24,000 nucleotides of DNA from Candidatus Omnitrophota bacterium (GTDB lineage Bacteria; Omnitrophota; Gorgyraeia; B26-G9), in NCBI GenBank assembly GCA_018817585.1, contig JAHITE010000036.1:15347-39346 (forward strand). Direction: 5' to 3'. The notes under the pieces were generated by a model. That model worked only from the letters and a program-made list of their open reading frames with translations, searched no databases and was not told the origin of the DNA. The stretch's first letter is position 1. Each line of letters begins with the position of its first letter. Of the stretch, positions 3,283 through 21,917 are shown piece by piece. The position numbers were made by a program, and so were the translations under genes.

Positions 3283-3346
3283 GATAAAAACAAACTTCTA
3301 ATTCCAATGGTCAATAGCCGATCCGCCAGGCAAAAATTCTCTTTGA

Positions 3347-3400: not shown

Positions 3401-3554
3401 TGGGCCTGCACGATGCAGGCTCAGGCTTAGCGAAAAGATGTGTTTTTGCCTGTCAAATAACTATTGCGCATTTGCGAATTCTGCTTTTCCTAACAGTAAA
3501 AGTTTATCCTTAGCGAAGTTCAATGGCTAATCGTTATCCGCTGCTTTTTTCTGT

Positions 3555-16112: not shown

Positions 16113-16127
16113 ACTTTTCCTTTAATA

Positions 16128-16176
16128 GGGACAGCGACTATTTTTCATCTTACTATCCATTGAAAAATAATGTCCC
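16128..16176 (-). other. Two-helix hairpin in the aroQ-pepP spacer
   Basis: GGGACA/TGTCCC (6 bp) and TATTTTTCA/TGAAAAATA (9 bp), separated by an asymmetric internal loop (gcgac versus a), with a 13-nt apical loop. No T-run follows on the minus strand, so it is not a canonical terminator. Confidence 0.5.
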
Positions 16177-16770: not shown

Positions 16771-16798
16771 ATGAGCTATGAGCCATCAGCTATTAGCT
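16771..16798. repeat. Four tandem heptamers ATGAGCT ATGAGCC ATCAGCT ATTAGCT
   Basis: Read directly. The stop codon of the transposase remnant (16786-16788) lies inside the array. Confidence 0.8.
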
Positions 16799-17046
16799 AT
16801 GTTATAAATATCCTGTTTCCATTTTTCGGGATTATCACGAATATATTTCTGAATTTGGCATAATGATTCATCATTGCGAATAATGTGGTCATAAAACGAT
16901 CGTTGCCATAAACGTTTATTAAATGGTGGCCAATTATTTTTTTTGACATTTTGAATGTATTGATTTGTTGTTATTGATTTAAACCATTTGATCATATCGA
17001 TATTGTAGGGGCGGCTGGCTGGCCGCCCGTATTGATCATCATCCAA
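16786..17046 (-). pseudogene. C-terminal remnant of an IS200/REP-associated (RAYT-like) Y1 transposase
   Basis: WQRSFYDHIIRNDESL...IRDNPEKW is the C-terminal Tyr-helix region of Y1 transposases. The N-terminal HUH half is missing. The only start is a TTG four codons after an in-frame TGA. GC-rich hairpin GGGCGGC-tggctg-GCCGCCC at 17010-17029. Confidence 0.7.
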
Positions 17047-17101: not shown

Positions 17102-17129
17102 ATTCGCTAAGCCCTAAACGCTAATCGCT
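17102..17129. repeat. Four tandem heptamers ATTCGCT AAGCCCT AAACGCT AATCGCT
   Basis: Read directly. The stop codon of the peptidase gene (17114-17116) lies inside the array. Confidence 0.8.
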
Positions 17130-17731
17130 ACTTTAAAATGGTCAAAGAAAAGAAATTGTTTTTCTTTCTCATGCTCTATTGACCAATCCGCTTTATAATC
17201 TGACAATTCAGGCAACCAACCATATTTATGTGTTGCCTCAAGTAAATAACAACGACCATTCACATATATATGAACCCAAGCGTGTCCGCATGATTCTGAT
17301 GTGCCAATAACTAATCTTGCCTTAAAACCCATGTCATGTAATTGGCGCCAAGCCCAAATTGAATGATCTTCACAATCTCCTTTGCGCCTTTTTTCAAATA
17401 TATCAGGAGGTTCCCAAAAATCTTTTTGACTTCTAGTTTCTCGGTCAGAAACATATTTACATTTTCTAAGAAAATTTTCAATATCCCTTAAGTTTTTTGG
17501 TCTGGTAGAAAGAGGTTTATTAAAATATCTATTCCAAGGATGTGTATTACCCAAATAAGCCTTGCGATGTTTTTTGCCTTGCCATTCTTTTTCTCCCCCA
17601 GGTAATTCTCTTATCATAAATACTGGAGCACAATTAAAATCCTGTTTAAAATCAGGGAGATATTTTTTATATAAAACTAGAAATATAGGATTAAGGATAT
17701 GAAAAAGCATACGTTTTATTAAATTTTTCAT
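17114..17731 (-). CDS. Transglutaminase-like cysteine peptidase (BTLCP/peptidase C93-like) with an N-terminal hydrophobic anchor
   Basis: FWEPPDIFEKRRKGDCEDHSIWAWRQL...GHAWVHIYVNGRCYLLEAT gives a Cys-His-acid core in the order and spacing of the transglutaminase-like fold. Hydrophobic N-terminus HILNPIFLVLY. Confidence 0.6.
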   Translation of the reverse strand: MKNLIKRMLFHILNPIFLVLYKKYLPDFKQDFNCAPVFMIRELPGGEKEWQGKKHRKAYLGNTHPWNRYFNKPLSTRPKNLRDIENFLRKCKYVSDRETRSQKDFWEPPDIFEKRRKGDCEDHSIWAWRQLHDMGFKARLVIGTSESCGHAWVHIYVNGRCYLLEATHKYGWLPELSDYKADWSIEHEKEKQFLFFDHFKVAISV

Positions 17732-17819: not shown

Positions 17820-18104
17820 CTAAATAGCGCAGTTTTTTTCTTTTGTAATTTCATATGAGACTGAATGGCTCGGATATAAAGTCGAAACAAAAGTAACTTT
17901 CCACGTATAATGAGAATAATATTTATTTTTGAAATGACTTGTATATGCAACCTCACTAAGGATGTATTCTCCATGTGAAAGTTCTTCTTTAAAAAATTCA
18001 TTTTCTGCAATTTTTACTGCTTCTTGAATTGAAATCTCAGGAATTGGTAAGAAGCAACACCAGGAAGCAACACCAGAGCAACACCAGGGTCTGCAACACC
18101 AGGG
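17820..18104 (-). pseudogene. Start-less open frame (94 codons), possible gene remnant
   Basis: My translation: PWCCRPWCCSGVASWCCFLPIPEISIQEAVKIAENEFFKEELSHGEYILSEVAYTSHFKNKYYSHYTWKVTFVSTLYPSHSVSYEITKEKNCAI*. No in-frame ATG, GTG or TTG, so it is absent from the track. The first 18 codons are encoded by the tandem repeat. Confidence 0.4.
18054..18102. repeat. Four copies of the 10-mer core GCAACACCAG, spaced 13, 11 and 15 nt apart
   Basis: Cores at 18054, 18067, 18078 and 18093. Followed by the inverted pair GGTCTG (18088-18093) / CAGACC (18106-18111). Confidence 0.8.
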
Positions 18105-18141
18105 TCAGACCTCCACTTTAGAAGTTATCATTTTTACACAC

Positions 18142-18174
18142 AAAAAAAGCAATTCCCTTTGTTTAGAGATTGCT
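18142..18174 (-). terminator. Rho-independent terminator T1 (end of the four-gene operon)
   Basis: Minus strand AGCAATCTCTAAACAAAGGGAATTGCTTTTTTT: 6-bp stem plus 3 further pairs across a bulge, then a U7 tract. The 5' arm overlaps the last codons and stop of the 18163-18849 gene. Confidence 0.75.
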
Positions 18175-18849
18175 GGATTGTTTAATTTTGTTGTTTAACT
18201 GCGTAATTAAGATTAATTCTCCTTTTGCCAAAGCCAATAAATACCCGGAGATACTAGCTCGTACATCATCCAGTTTAATATCATATTGAGATAATCTCAT
18301 CCTATCGCATGTAATTAAAAGCTGTTTAGACATAATCTCAGGAGTTAGCTCTGTTATTTTCTTTTCGGTCATACCTGATAGCGGTACTAACAGAGGCTTC
18401 CCTAATATATGAAATTCATCTTTTCTGAAAGCGCTATAATTACTTGATGCGATATAAATTTTTTGTTCTTGTTCTTTTTCTGCAGAATTTTGAAAATATT
18501 CTTTAGTATCTGAAATATGGGGCAGATCATTGATTAAATGTTCTAATTGACTATACATGTCGGAACTATTATTTGTTTTTAAAAATATTCTAAAATACGC
18601 AGAGTGGATCTGATATTTAATTGATTCAATATTTTTATTTTTCGCAAGATATTTAGCAAAAGGAATAACCAACGTAATTTCAACTGTTTCAGGGTCATAT
18701 CCGCCTAATAGATAATCAGAAGTAAGTCCTATAATATTTCCTTCTAGCAAAAAGATTGAATCTTCCTTTTTCTGATTACACGATATCCCTATAAATACAC
18801 TGATAATAATCAGCCCTATCAATAAATATTTGCTAATATTTTTCTGCAT
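18163..18849 (-). CDS. Predicted lipoprotein, unknown function (operon gene 4)
   Basis: 228 aa. Signal peptide MQKNISKYLLIGLIIISVFIGISC with Cys after the h-region. AAGGAAAAA Shine-Dalgarno. No motif I recognise. Confidence 0.75.
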   Translation of the reverse strand: MQKNISKYLLIGLIIISVFIGISCNQKKEDSIFLLEGNIIGLTSDYLLGGYDPETVEITLVIPFAKYLAKNKNIESIKYQIHSAYFRIFLKTNNSSDMYSQLEHLINDLPHISDTKEYFQNSAEKEQEQKIYIASSNYSAFRKDEFHILGKPLLVPLSGMTEKKITELTPEIMSKQLLITCDRMRLSQYDIKLDDVRASISGYLLALAKGELILITQLNNKIKQSSNL

Positions 18850-18910
18850 TTTTTCCTTTTAGAATATTATTTGAACTCTTACCGCATCAAAATTTACCTA
18901 GTTATGCGTT

Positions 18911-19420
18911 TTATTGCTCAGTTAAGGGTAATAATGATGTTTCAATCCACCCTGTTCCATTATATGTATACGAGTGAGTATTGGTATCTACTCTAATACC
19001 TGGAAGTAATTCTGTGGAAAATCTAAACAAACCTTTGCCAACCTCTTGAAGCACCATCCGGCCTTTAATAACTTTAATCTTTCCTTCTCCCAACGGATTT
19101 GTGAAATTATAATTTCTCAAAAATAAACCGTCTTTTTCATCGGCATTAACTGCATCCTGGCCAAGATAGATGTTAAATCCAGCCTCTCCGATGCTTACTT
19201 GCCCGCCAACTTTCTTTTCTTTAGCCACCCAATGATCCTCACCAATACTTCTAAGCATCTGATCGACTACGCCTATGAGATTAGAATTATAAACAGTTTT
19301 AATGGAGTTATTTTCCTTAGGCGCAGCGGTTGATTCATCTTCCGCCAGCACGGTTGAAAAAGAGATAGTGAGAAACAATAAATTGACTATGACCAAAATC
19401 TTAAATAAAATTTTATGCAT
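18911..19420 (-). CDS. Predicted secreted protein, unknown function (operon gene 3)
   Basis: 169 aa. Type I signal peptide ...FSTVLA/EDE. AGGAGA Shine-Dalgarno. The sequence looks beta-rich, with no recognisable motif. Confidence 0.75.
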   Translation of the reverse strand: MHKILFKILVIVNLLFLTISFSTVLAEDESTAAPKENNSIKTVYNSNLIGVVDQMLRSIGEDHWVAKEKKVGGQVSIGEAGFNIYLGQDAVNADEKDGLFLRNYNFTNPLGEGKIKVIKGRMVLQEVGKGLFRFSTELLPGIRVDTNTHSYTYNGTGWIETSLLPLTEQ

Positions 19421-19459
19421 TCTATCTCCTTTTTCTTAATCCTTTTATATTTATCAGTA

Positions 19460-20218
19460 CTATTTTTCTGCTAATATCTCTTTTTCTGATTCCAGACGCA
19501 TTATCTCTTCATCAATTATATTTACCGCAATATCAGACAACATCGTCTCAGTTGGACCTACAGCACCAATAATCCCCCAAAGCGAAAAACCGGTCAAACG
19601 ATAATCAAGCTTCTTTTTGATATTACTCAATAGTTTATTAGTTTTTCCATCAGAAATATTTATATCATATGTCCAAGTATAAGACCCCATAACCGGAACA
19701 GGTAAAACTAATGACGGAACAGCCATAATCACATCCCAAATAATTTTAGGGATCATATTAGGACCCAAACTAGGAGGGTAAGTCCCATTAACAGTATATT
19801 CAGGCTCAATATCATCATATCTATACGGCCTTCCATGTTTACCTTCAACTTGATACTCAGAAGCAACATCAACTGACTCGTAGCCAATTTTTTTCATAGC
19901 AGCAGCCAAAGCCTTAGATTCTTTCCATGTTGACTCATATGAGAACTCTCCGCCTGAACCGCCGGATGCAATTGCTGCTTGAAGGCTATGATATTCTGTG
20001 CCATGATATCCTGTTTGAATCCGATATTCAGGTCCCCATTTTGTTATCTTTATTTTTACATTTTTCCTAGTATCTGATTTTAATTTATTTACCTTAATGT
20101 TTTTAATTAAATTTTCTCGTGAACCTCTAAGCACTAAAGTTCTTGTGGAACATCCAGTTGACGAACTCATTAAAATCAAACATATAAAAATAAAAAAACA
20201 TTTCTGCTTATTGCCCAT
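19460..20218 (-). CDS. Predicted lipoprotein with internal hydrophobic segments, unknown function (operon gene 2)
   Basis: 252 aa. MGNKQKCFFIFICLILMSSSTGC lipobox-like. Hydrophobic stretches IIWDVIMAVPSLVLPVPVMG and LTGFSLWGIIGAVG. AAGGAGAG Shine-Dalgarno. Confidence 0.75.
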   Translation of the reverse strand: MGNKQKCFFIFICLILMSSSTGCSTRTLVLRGSRENLIKNIKVNKLKSDTRKNVKIKITKWGPEYRIQTGYHGTEYHSLQAAIASGGSGGEFSYESTWKESKALAAAMKKIGYESVDVASEYQVEGKHGRPYRYDDIEPEYTVNGTYPPSLGPNMIPKIIWDVIMAVPSLVLPVPVMGSYTWTYDINISDGKTNKLLSNIKKKLDYRLTGFSLWGIIGAVGPTETMLSDIAVNIIDEEIMRLESEKEILAEK

Positions 20219-20233
20219 TATACTCTCCTTATA

Positions 20234-20827
20234 CTATTTTATTTTAGGACACAACCATAATAAAGCCGCAATCGCTCTATCTCTTTCTTCTTGGGTGAAA
20301 ACTGAGAATCCGAATCCGTTCTTATTTTTTTCATCCTGTGAATCCCATGGAACGCTAAGCGAAAAGTCCCAACAATCTCCATATAATACATATTTGGTAT
20401 TATTAATTCCAATACTCTCAACATTTTCCCACTTAAAGCTGGCATTAGTATCCGCCTCAGAAGTAGTCCAAGTTCGATAGACAACCTTTTTTAAATCAGA
20501 ATAAACTAGTTCCCGATGATTAGTACCATGCTTAAAAACACCTGCAACCCCAGTTTCACTTATCGAAAACTTTGGTTTATAATCAGAATTATTACAAGAA
20601 CTATTAGAAAAGTCTACCCTTTTTGCAAAAACTTCTTGAAAAACTTTTAAAGCCTGTTCTTTGTCCATTTGAGCAAATTGAGCTTGCGCGTCAGGATAAA
20701 GCTTATGATAAGAATTTTTTTTAATTGGCCTTACAGTAGAACAGCCACTAATTAATAATACGAAAATTATAATAATATATGATGAAATTATTCGATTAAT
20801 AGTCATTATTAGGAATTTTCCTTTCAT
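20234..20827 (-). CDS. Predicted lipoprotein, unknown function (operon gene 1)
   Basis: Lipobox LLISGC. Start is uncertain: TTG at 20851 (track), ATG at 20827 (MKGKFLIMTINR...), or ATG at 20806 (MTINR..., AAGGA about 12 nt upstream). Confidence 0.72.
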   Translation of the reverse strand: MKGKFLIMTINRIISSYIIIIFVLLISGCSTVRPIKKNSYHKLYPDAQAQFAQMDKEQALKVFQEVFAKRVDFSNSSCNNSDYKPKFSISETGVAGVFKHGTNHRELVYSDLKKVVYRTWTTSEADTNASFKWENVESIGINNTKYVLYGDCWDFSLSVPWDSQDEKNKNGFGFSVFTQEERDRAIAALLWLCPKIK

Positions 20828-20875
20828 TAATTTTAACGATAAAGTGTGCAAGTTGCGTAATCACGTCATTACAAC

Positions 20876-20905
20876 AAAAAAGCAATCCCCTATTTAGAGA
20901 TTGCT
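20876..20905 (-). terminator. Rho-independent terminator T2
   Basis: Minus strand AGCAATCTC-TAAATAG-GGGATTGCT-TTTTT: 9-bp stem including one G-U pair, 7-nt loop, then a U tract (6 T in total after the GC of the 3' arm). Lies between the small ORF/TA unit and the four-gene operon. Confidence 0.8.
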
Positions 20906-21017
20906 GGATTATTTAATCTATGTTTCATGCCCATTTCGACTTCTCTTTGTTGAGTTGACGTTTAGACTTGTATTTTTATATATAAATAATACTATTTTAC
21001 TCCACTTGCGTCAATAA

Positions 21018-21161
21018 TTAATACGTCTCTTGTACAATTGGTTTGAATTCTCTAGTATTTGTCAGCATATATCCTAAGCAGATTAAACCTAATATGCACA
21101 GGAGAATAATCGCGCATATAACTTTAATCTGTTTTCTTAGAAATACTCCAAATTGATTCAT
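21018..21161 (-). CDS. Unannotated 47-codon ORF, predicted single-pass membrane peptide
   Basis: My translation: MNQFGVFLRKQIKVICAIILLCILGLICLGYMLTNTREFKPIVQETY*. AAGGAA Shine-Dalgarno 9 nt upstream of the ATG. Below the 60-aa cutoff of the ORF track. Followed by terminator T2. Confidence 0.4.
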   Translation of the reverse strand: MNQFGVFLRKQIKVICAIILLCILGLICLGYMLTNTREFKPIVQETY

Positions 21162-21292
21162 TAATCTGTTCCTTGGTTTCAAGGGAAAATTAAAGCCAGC
21201 TATTTGTTTATTTTTTCTTCTAATTTATTAGATTAATAGGGGAAGCGACTATTTTTTTATGCTACCCAGTAAAACAAAACAATCAATCATTT

Positions 21293-21562
21293 TTATTCAT
21301 ATCTGGGTTTATCATAAACTTCTCTGCGATGTCCTATTTTTAATACTTCAATATTATTTTTTTCGATTTTATAAATAATGCGGTAATTTCCAACACGTAG
21401 TTTTCGGTATCCTTGAAGGCTTCGGCGGAGAGGCTCCCCATATTTAATCGGGTCAGCTAACAATTTGTTTTCAATCGCTTTTTTTATTCTATCTTTGATA
21501 TTTTTTGGGATACCCAAAATATCGTTTTTTACTTCAGGATGATAGATAATAGAATAATCCAT
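21293..21562 (-). CDS. Type II toxin, RelE/ParE family
   Basis: YRKLRVGNYRIIYKIEKNNIEVLKIGHRREVY is the typical RelE/ParE C-terminal pattern. I prefer the ATG at 21562 (TAATG overlap with the antitoxin stop) over the TTG at 21571. Confidence 0.88.
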   Translation of the reverse strand: MDYSIIYHPEVKNDILGIPKNIKDRIKKAIENKLLADPIKYGEPLRRSLQGYRKLRVGNYRIIYKIEKNNIEVLKIGHRREVYDKPRYE

Positions 21563-21789
21563 TATTTCCAAATATCCTTATGGGACAAAGCTTTTTTAGG
21601 GGAGAGTGTTTTATTCCTTTTTTCAGCTGCTTCCTGCCAATATATATCTTCACGAATTTCCAAAGCTTCCTTTATAAGGTCTCGGGAAAATAGAGAAAGT
21701 GAAATTCCTTGGCTTTGAGCTAATTTATTAAGAGTATTATATATTTCAGGATCAAGAACTACATTTATTCTAGGATTTTTAGTTGGCAT
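21562..21789 (-). CDS. Type II antitoxin, ribbon-helix-helix (CopG/RelB-like)
   Basis: 75 aa. PRINVVLDPEIYNTLNKLAQSQGISLSLFSRDLIKEAL fits a beta-alpha-alpha RHH. GGAGG Shine-Dalgarno 7 nt upstream. Coupled to the downstream toxin gene. Confidence 0.82.
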   Translation of the reverse strand: MPTKNPRINVVLDPEIYNTLNKLAQSQGISLSLFSRDLIKEALEIREDIYWQEAAEKRNKTLSPKKALSHKDIWK

Positions 21790-21836: not shown

Positions 21837-21884
21837 AGAAATTAAACGTCAACCGCTGCAAGTCTGTAATTACCTCATGAAAAC

Positions 21885-21917
21885 AAAAAAAGCAATCTCC
21901 TGTTGTTTAGATATTGC
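21885..21917 (-). terminator. Rho-independent terminator T3 (same family as T1 and T2)
   Basis: Minus strand GCAATATCTAAACAACAGGAGATTGCTTTTTTT: 5 bp, a mismatch, then 3 bp, followed by a U7 tract. About 230 nt downstream of the htpG stop. Confidence 0.65.

Follow-up and report, generated by a model that had tools for sequence, protein, structure and literature searches.

Four adjacent genes for exported proteins in an Omnitrophota island: a probable mosaic around a conserved lipoprotein pair with a predicted LptE/PelC/CsgG/TraT-type member

The question raised by a stretch of 24,000 nucleotides from a Candidatus Omnitrophota bacterium (GenBank assembly GCA_018817585.1, contig JAHITE010000036.1, positions 15,347 to 39,346; the whole stretch is referred to here as the window) is whether four adjacent genes, designated g1 to g4, encode the components of one dedicated envelope system or a mosaic of genes with separate histories. 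An original prediction, made from the letters of the window, had taken them for an orphan four-gene operon encoding three lipoproteins and one secreted protein. The interpretation preferred here, which falls just on the probable side, is that of a mosaic with the g1-g2 pair as its core, in which g2 would form an outer-membrane-anchored ring and g1 would be its partner. The parts of this interpretation differ in firmness: the mosaic itself and the fold predicted for g2 are held with good confidence, and the ring and its biological role are tentative. The four genes are the following.

20234-20806, minus strand: g1, lipoprotein of 190 amino acids (aa); the ATG at 20806 is the start called by NCBI
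19460-20218, minus strand: g2, lipoprotein of 252 aa
18911-19420, minus strand: g3, secreted protein of 169 aa with a type I signal peptide ending VLA/ED
18163-18849, minus strand: g4, lipoprotein of 228 aa, truncated at its 3' end

All four are real genes for exported proteins, and they are probably co-transcribed. A listing of open reading frames (ORFs) agrees with the original prediction in giving four co-directional ORFs at these positions, separated by 15 nucleotides (nt) between g1 and g2, 39 nt between g2 and g3 and 61 nt between g3 and g4; g1 has alternative starts at 20827 and 20851, its longest ORF (20234-20851) beginning with TTG. When the region was shuffled (n = 1000) the longest ORF obtained was of 167 aa, with a mean longest of 67 aa, so that no shuffled sequence contained an ORF of at least 169 aa, compared with four in the real sequence. 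Shine-Dalgarno sites were found as had been described, namely AAGGAGAG for g2, AGGAGA for g3, AAGGAAAAA for g4 and, for g1, AAAGGA 13 nt before the ATG at 20806. The three lipoboxes and the single type I signal peptide that had been predicted were likewise recovered: a PROSITE PS51257-type rule accepts g1 (IIIFVLLISGC, Cys22), g2 (CLILMSSSTGC, Cys23) and g4 (IIISVFIGISC, Cys24) and excludes g3, whose n/h/c-type signal peptide, read from the sequence, ends VLA/ED. Alignments of the g1 and g4 families show no exception to the lipobox cysteine, and in a 10-sequence alignment of g2 its conservation is at least 90%. Exact protein matches to all four, MBU1086508.1 (g1) through MBU1086505.1 (tags KKD05_03220 to KKD05_03205), are annotated as "hypothetical" on a 42.4-kb contig. 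The same arrangement occurs at 100% identity in two Logan assemblies, over 3.1 kb in L001 (SRR6514274) and 1.6 kb in L015 (SRR35106290), the latter match taking in the truncated end of g4; here and below L-numbers denote loci or contigs holding relatives and P-numbers denote relative proteins. Since these two independent assemblies derive from other sequencing runs and are identical, the arrangement is not a mis-assembly.

An important consideration in deciding whether the four genes belong together is what accompanies their relatives elsewhere. Homologues of g1 and g2 are adjacent at three other distinct loci (L002/L008, L003/L004 and L006), with gaps of 21, 97 and 21 nt respectively and protein identities of 38-54%, and at none of these loci was there any similarity to g3 or g4. 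The genes that come after the pair at L002 encode small unrelated proteins of secreted and membrane type, of which a secreted one of 144 aa is a positional analogue of g3, but neither it nor the other secreted proteins downstream of the L002 pair show similarity to g3. Further metagenome and genome scans yielded only duplicates of loci already known. No relative of g3 was found in the fetched loci, a pattern scan of JGI metagenomes, IMG/VR, phages, plasmids, the PDB or profile libraries, and its cluster at 90% identity has a size of one. A large-database query with concatenated g3 and g4 returned the g4 family and not g3 itself, which is present in that collection, and is therefore uninformative for g3. 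On this sequence evidence g3 is best described as a lineage-specific secreted ORFan. Thus the idea of an orphan four-gene system stands only for g1 and g2, which recur as a pair, and not for g3 and g4, the two genes of the four that were never found with that pair at another locus. We conclude that g1-g4 form a mosaic, as opposed to one dedicated system of four parts, and that the g1-g2 pair is the conserved core.

As far as can be judged from alignments, g1 is the conserved upstream partner of g2. In L002, L003/L004 and L006 a homologue of g1 (38-49% identity) immediately precedes the g2 homologue, and these g1 homologues share an invariant G21-C22 and a conserved C-terminus, FSVFTxEERDRAIAALLWLCP. 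There was no match to g1 in Pfam, NCBIfam or the PDB, and hhalign comparisons of g1 with the g2 family, and of g1 with a second type of g2 partner described below, aligned signal peptides only.

The g2 family is very rare. Only four relatives of g2 were found among 5.8 billion clusters, and an exhaustive HMMER profile search of 1.84 billion (1.84e9) representatives produced 26 matches at E<=1e-3; all ten members that were looked up are singleton clusters from metagenomes, and there were no family matches in viral contigs. Most matches share only the C-terminal ~110 residues, a module made up, in order, of a helix "L..AL...G", a strand "(D/N)PxYxIEG", the segment WDxxMAxPSxVLPVP, a long beta-hairpin, the segment GFSLWG and a C-terminal helix. 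No variation is seen in the family at P173 and P175, and P168, L172 and D190 are at least 90% conserved; the hydrophobic stretch runs from about residues 156-160 (Kyte-Doolittle 19-residue windows of at least 1.6). Most members that possess an N-terminus begin with a lipoprotein signal ending in cysteine.

An AlphaFold2 model of g2 calculated from a 28-sequence alignment has a mean predicted local distance difference test (pLDDT) score of 85.4 and a predicted template modelling (pTM) score of 0.80, and replaced a poor earlier model based on 5 sequences (pLDDT 58.9). Its elements include a core strand (141-146), a proline-rich hydrophobic segment (155-175) inserted between strands of the core, a beta-hairpin (176-210) and a charged helix (224-251). 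A Foldseek search of the PDB with this model matched PelC (4.3e-5) and CsgG (3.4e-4), with probabilities of 0.97-1.00, and TraT (6.5e-4), and further matches were to HpaA, LptE, GNA1162, FlgT, a DUF330 protein and a Caulobacter lipoprotein. Among the viral models of BFVD the matches were to CsgG-like and LptE-like proteins, including a CsgG-annotated phage protein (E 3.8e-4). The matched proteins are lipoproteins of the envelope that share one core, and several of them assemble into rings at the outer membrane. The core of g2 is accordingly predicted, from the model, to have the two-helix/antiparallel-sheet fold of LptE, PelC, CsgG and TraT. The statement that the four proteins contain no recognisable domains holds for sequence profiles: Pfam, NCBIfam, PADLOC and PHROGs gave no significant match for g1-g4, with a few weak matches confined to signal peptides, and searches of PDB sequences with g1, g2, g3 and g4, whether by profile or by single sequence, found nothing significant. 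It does not hold for the structure of g2, where the model places the protein in the LptE/PelC/CsgG/TraT-type fold class, though not in a family with a known role.

Comparison with characterised members of this fold class is instructive. In TraT two transmembrane helices and a long beta-hairpin project from a core of LptE type, and the transmembrane segments form a helical barrel in the decamer (PMC12658005, PMC11733297). The same core fold has been reported in proteins that bind anionic oligosaccharides (PMC12658005). In common with TraT, the IncF surface exclusion protein (PDB 9fs5/9fsm; Foldseek E 6.5e-4, probability 0.97, TM-score on the query 0.33), g2 has a lipoprotein signal, a predicted LptE-like two-helix/beta-sheet core and a length of about 225-250 aa, and is the product of an accessory gene with a patchy distribution. 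The order of elements in g2, in which a core strand is followed by a hydrophobic insertion, the long hairpin and a terminal helix, is also what we take to be the order in TraT, and in the model the insertion appears to be placed where TraT carries its membrane helices. The original prediction had drawn attention to two internal hydrophobic segments and to a charged helix at the C-terminus of g2; these are real and fit a TraT-type architecture. Unlike TraT, g2 has no sequence similarity to that family, is neither on a plasmid nor next to tra genes (there is no conjugation context in the window) and is paired with a second lipoprotein, g1; and where TraT has two Gly/Ala-rich transmembrane helices, g2 has the single proline-rich segment WDxxMAxPSxVLPVP together with the short GFSLWG segment. 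PelC and CsgG are lipoproteins too, share the core fold and are the best structural matches, but the TM-scores are only about 0.3-0.45, g2 has no sequence-profile match to either and there are no pel or csg genes nearby. CsgG crosses the outer membrane by segments extending from the core, and the insertion of g2 is too short and too proline-rich to be a beta-hairpin of the CsgG type. The small lipoproteins of the LptE, LpoB, DUF4410 and DUF330 (PqiC-type) families belong to the same fold class without any relation at the level of sequence, and we know of no conserved hydrophobic insertion in these four families. On the evidence of the model g2 would seem to work most like TraT, PelC or CsgG, and yet it falls outside all of these families in every sequence comparison.

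The contexts of other g2-family genes indicate that the partner may vary. The long form of g2 in Omnitrophota-like contigs is paired with g1, and in front of each of the short-form members P0013 and P0021 (185-188 aa) lies a gene for a DUF2846-like lipoprotein of ~186 aa that is unrelated to g1. These short-form pairs are located as follows.

L005, 1956-3093: DUF2846-like lipoprotein and short-form g2
L019, 231-1524: DUF2846-like lipoprotein and short-form g2, the two DUF2846-like partners being 59% identical to each other

A DUF4410 lipoprotein is encoded 2.3 kb upstream of g1-g2 in L002. In a metagenome-assembled genome (MAG) of the Desulfobacteraceae (L010 5968-10328, equivalent to L011) a g2-family gene is followed by genes for an LpoB-domain lipoprotein of 376 aa, a lipoprotein of 161 aa, a tetratricopeptide repeat (TPR) protein of 477 aa and a lipoprotein of 178 aa, which together may make up a more extensive cluster of envelope lipoproteins. 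The contexts examined revealed no linkage of the g2 family to an ATPase, an inner-membrane component or any obvious substrate gene, and neither curli nor Pel genes occurred among the neighbours in five distinct g2 contexts.

The g4 gene of the window is a truncated copy. Two orthologues, P0015 (84% identity) and P0016 (67%), are both 263 aa in length, 35 aa longer than the 228 aa of g4. L007 is the only g4-orthologue locus for which DNA and a readable context are available, and there genes for a leucine-rich-repeat protein and a Na/Ca exchanger precede the orthologue, with none of g1-g3 nearby. Nucleotide homology between L007 and the window is limited to window positions 18859-18193, and a codon-by-codon comparison revealed that g4 diverges from its orthologue at codon 220, the last 8 codons and the stop being derived from a repeat element that is considered below. 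The ratio of nonsynonymous to synonymous substitution (dN/dS) for the family is 0.14 (dN 0.073, dS 0.53; 218 codons), and this purifying selection argues that the g4 family consists of real proteins, of which the window holds a truncated copy. The sequence TTAAAC is present on both sides of the g4 junction (18163-18190 end) and may represent microhomology for the rearrangement. At L007 an ORF after the g4 orthologue (3435-3504, where the contig ends) begins MAKFKPYRAEQLMLFPN, presumably resembling the N-terminus of IS1182/IS5-type transposases.

As to what the complete g4 protein might be, residues 49-246 of P0015 are collinear with positions 50-262 of Pfam ACR_tran (E 0.002; at 16.4 bits the score falls short of the cut-off, 28), P0016 matches ACR_tran weakly, and the only PDB match of the family profile was a resistance-nodulation-division (RND) efflux pump, at a non-significant E of 0.88. 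The g4 orthologue shares with the periplasmic N-terminal region of RND transporters the motif ...G..V.L.DVA..E in a collinear alignment, and this was the only part aligned by hhalign with an AcrB N-terminal sequence (E 0.021, probability 2%). RND transporters have 12 membrane helices and about 1000 aa, whereas the g4 family has 263 aa, a lipobox and a single N-terminal hydrophobic segment; the window copy, in contrast to the orthologue and to RND proteins, lacks the DVA motif as a result of its truncation. These similarities suggest, without proving it, that these lipoproteins descend from, or are similar to, the N-terminal periplasmic portion of an RND transporter.

The element that provides g4 with its new end is one of three copies in the window of a hairpin, AGCAATCTCT ... 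GGGGATTGCT, followed by a T-run (TTTTTT), against ~0.01 expected by chance.

18138-18186, minus strand: copy A, hairpin and T-run ending g4 and serving as the terminator of the unit
20872-21014, minus strand: copy B, directly upstream of g1, with its hairpin at 20872-20917
21866-21917, minus strand: copy C, between htpG and a toxin-antitoxin (TA) module

That the unit has its own terminator, as had been proposed, is borne out by the hairpin and T-run 3' of g4, but copy A is weaker than copy B and a terminator scan flagged only the latter, upstream of g1. In copy B a promoter-like TTGACG-17-TATTAT is followed after ~95 nt by the hairpin AGCAATCTCT/GGGGATTGCT and the T-run, so that, to judge by these letters, it has the appearance of a small transcription unit standing on its own. 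Within 3.5 kb of L007 there are two longer copies and two that have the hairpin only (1-215, 1340-1575, 2385-2405 and 3318-3345), and taking the window and L007 together the spacing from the promoter-like site to the hairpin of this multi-copy unit is ~95-190 nt. A tiny peptide could be encoded, MGMKHRLNNPAISK in the window and MSIKQPPNNQAAISKKQRIAIRV in L007. The repeat unit may be a small RNA gene or a tiny-peptide gene; an Rfam search reported tRNA only and no RNA family for it.

Copies of the repeat are located at the borders of modules within an island that lies between aroQ and htpG and is flanked by housekeeping genes (guaA, thiC, accC, accB, efp, pepP and aroQ on one side, htpG on the other). 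That the island is AT-rich, an impression gained by eye in the original prediction, was confirmed by calculation: GC content is 0.30-0.37 over roughly 16.5-21.5 kb, as against 0.38-0.44 in the flanks, and GC content at third codon positions (GC3) is 0.24-0.26 for g1, g2 and g4 and 0.335 for g3, compared with 0.34-0.46 for core genes. The predicted TA module was identified as a ParE/RHH pair, and the transposase remnant corresponds to a sub-threshold Y1 fragment. The other features of the island are listed below.

21562-21789, minus strand: RHH antitoxin (Pfam RHH_5, 5.2e-6)
21293-21571, minus strand: ParE toxin (Pfam ParE_toxin, 5.6e-15)
21018-21182, minus strand: 54-aa ORF that lies between the repeat unit and the TA module and has a single, strongly hydrophobic segment
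17812-18060, minus strand: start-less ORF remnant IPEISIQEAVKIAENEFF...YEITKEKNCAI, with no Pfam match
17114-17731, minus strand: transglutaminase-like cysteine protease gene downstream of g4, product without a signal peptide (Pfam Transglut_core, 1.2e-8)
16786-17046, minus strand: C-terminal fragment of an IS200-like (Y1) transposase (Pfam Y1_Tnp, E 2e-4, sub-threshold, profile positions 67-121 of 121)

The 54-aa ORF is 98% conserved in L001 (the 100% identical assembly) and has only weak matches, to LrgA and KwaA. Tandem repeats of 13/15 nt (GAAGCAACACCAG; 18051-18106) precede the start-less remnant, which probably represents the 3' portion of a gene that was destroyed. An orthologue of the transglutaminase-like gene, 94% identical at the nucleotide level, occurs in a different context at L013 (3135-3692), after three small unknown genes and adjoining methyltransferase-like and EcoO109I-like endonuclease genes of a restriction-modification type. 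The contrast in GC3, the position of the repeats at module borders and the occurrence of the transglutaminase-like gene in another context suggest that the island is a patchwork of portable genes, and it looks as though these were joined through rearrangements at the recurrent terminator-type repeat. It may well be the case that g3 and g4 were placed beside the g1-g2 pair by such rearrangements involving the repeated terminator element. There is no sign of a phage origin for g1-g4 or a plasmid origin for g3: scans of IMG/VR with all four families found nothing, and neither did tblastn searches of phages and plasmids with g3. A 16-nt motif, AGTCGCTGTCCCTATT, is found at 16124-16139 and 21235-21250 (minus strand), just upstream of pepP and of the 54-aa ORF respectively, giving two matches in the window where none is predicted by chance; a close variant was seen by eye upstream of the g4 orthologue in L007 (about 2446-2468), and the motif may be a shared promoter or operator element.

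Several other interpretations of the locus have to be weighed against a mosaic. One is the proposal that all four proteins make up a single dedicated and undescribed envelope system, with the operon as its functional unit. Co-directionality, gaps of 15-61 nt without an internal terminator, export signals on all four products and the recovery of the identical arrangement in three assemblies are what would be expected of such a system, and the L002 pair is likewise followed by a small secreted protein in the position of g3. We nevertheless consider it improbable, because g3 and g4 were never with g1-g2 at the three other distinct loci, the 144-aa protein of L002 is dissimilar to g3, the g4 orthologue with a readable context occurs on its own, both orthologues being longer by 35 aa and the window copy truncated by the repeat, and the GC3 of g3 is unlike that of the other three genes. 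About equally improbable is the suggestion that the island is decaying accessory DNA whose ORFs are leftovers of mobile cargo without present function; the transposase fragment, the start-less remnant, the truncated g4, the low GC3 of the island genes and the metagenome singleton status of every family member looked up would all fit, but g1 and g2 are intact ORFs whose invariant lipobox cysteine and long invariant motifs persist although the homologues share only 38-54% identity, purifying selection acts on the g4 family as noted above, and all four genes have good ribosome-binding sites. An integron-like cassette array, in which the hairpins would be attC-type recombination sites, was also entertained, since three related imperfect inverted repeats lie at module borders and one of them now supplies a gene with its 3' end; TA modules are typical of chromosomal cassette arrays. 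However, for the part of the window examined neither the ORF lists nor the Pfam scans show an integrase gene, the hairpin with its 9-10 bp stem and T-run has the form of an intrinsic terminator with no clear R''/R' GTTRRRY core visible by eye, the longest copy of the repeat has its own promoter-like site and the modules hold up to four genes. The cassette idea was rejected as very improbable indeed on account of the absent integrase and the terminator-like hairpins.

How the conserved pair might work can be outlined, though only conditionally. Both lipoproteins are predicted to be exported by Sec, lipidated and sorted by the Lol pathway to the outer membrane, a sorting call made by the E. coli rule for Asp at position +2, which neither g1 nor g2 possesses. 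Outer-membrane secretins are known to be encoded by Omnitrophota (PMC10066038). Once at the membrane, g2 would oligomerise into a ring whose proline-rich hydrophobic insertions dip into the bilayer, and the lipid-anchored g1 would dock on this ring as a subfamily-specific partner, its upstream position being taken in the short-form pairs by the DUF2846-like lipoprotein. For the role of the pair a TraT-like surface barrier or exclusion accessory is favoured over a secretion channel because the pair is accessory and patchy and no gene for an ATPase, an inner-membrane component or a substrate is linked to it. Gene structure, export signals, g1-g2 synteny, the rarity of the g2 family, its conserved hydrophobic motif, the fold class and the truncation of g4 are what the data show; placement in the outer membrane, assembly of a ring, insertion into the membrane, contact between g1 and g2 and the role are all matters that we infer.

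A number of observations weigh against this interpretation. As regards the mosaic, the four genes are intact and identical in three assemblies, and a lineage-specific joint function for g3 and g4 is possible. As regards the fold, the Foldseek TM-scores of g2 are low, at 0.25-0.36 on the query and up to 0.57 on the target, so that the assignment is one of fold class and topology and not of family membership. The Pfam families of TraT, CsgG, LptE, PelC and DUF4410 gave no match to g2 at E<=1, the 28 members of the g2 family gave neither a TraT (PF05818) match at E<=1 nor any meaningful family match in Pfam, the family profile found nothing in the PDB by sequence, and an hhalign comparison of the family with a DUF4410 protein aligned the signal peptide only. 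Partner lipoproteins are absent beside the g2-family members at L009/L012, L016 and L018. As regards the ring, monomeric proteins of the same fold, such as LptE, are equally compatible with the structural match; the insertion of g2 is one proline-rich segment and not the Gly/Ala-rich helical hairpin of TraT, and a binding site, as opposed to a membrane anchor, could account for its strong conservation.

The main rival is accordingly that g1 and g2 are monomeric, periplasm-facing lipoproteins that form no membrane-inserted ring and act as scaffolds or regulators, either in the manner of LpoB for a peptidoglycan synthase or in that of LptE for lipopolysaccharide (LPS) or anionic glycans. LpoB is a monomeric protein of the same fold, one g2-family gene lies directly upstream of the cluster with the LpoB-domain lipoprotein, the structural matches of g2 include LptE, GNA1162 and the Caulobacter lipoprotein, and the binding of anionic oligosaccharides by proteins with this core, mentioned above, would be in keeping with such a function. 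The best-scoring matches of g2, however, are the ring-forming PelC, CsgG and TraT, no LptD, penicillin-binding protein (PBP) or glycan-synthesis gene is linked to g1-g2, and an invariant and strongly hydrophobic insertion of 20 residues, of which we know no counterpart in LptE or LpoB, is hard to fit into a soluble monomer. On balance the monomeric alternative is regarded as unlikely. The fuller version of the ring interpretation, which is itself doubtful, is that the g2 family represents an undescribed class of outer-membrane rings that engage the membrane by a proline-rich loop, instead of the helical barrel of TraT or the beta-barrel of CsgG, and that, with interchangeable partners (g1 or DUF2846-like), would act as a barrier or exclusion device at the surface of ultra-small and possibly host-attached Omnitrophota and of members of a few other phyla.

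Nothing found at this locus contradicts current understanding. More generally, genes that look like an "orphan operon" in a MAG may turn out to be portable single genes and gene pairs stitched together at a repeated terminator, and, as the patchwork seen here implies, a system of several components can be suggested too readily when it is read from co-directionality and short gaps alone. In practical terms the value is modest and lies in the definition of g1-g2 as a two-gene target for multimer modelling and heterologous expression. If the interpretation of g2 is correct, it would add to the LptE/PelC/CsgG/TraT superfamily a very rare branch that cannot be recognised from sequence, together with a new type of membrane-engaging insertion and partner lipoproteins that can be swapped. 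This would bear on the biology of the cell surface, whether in attachment, predation or parasitism, of the Omnitrophota, a phylum with no cultured members.

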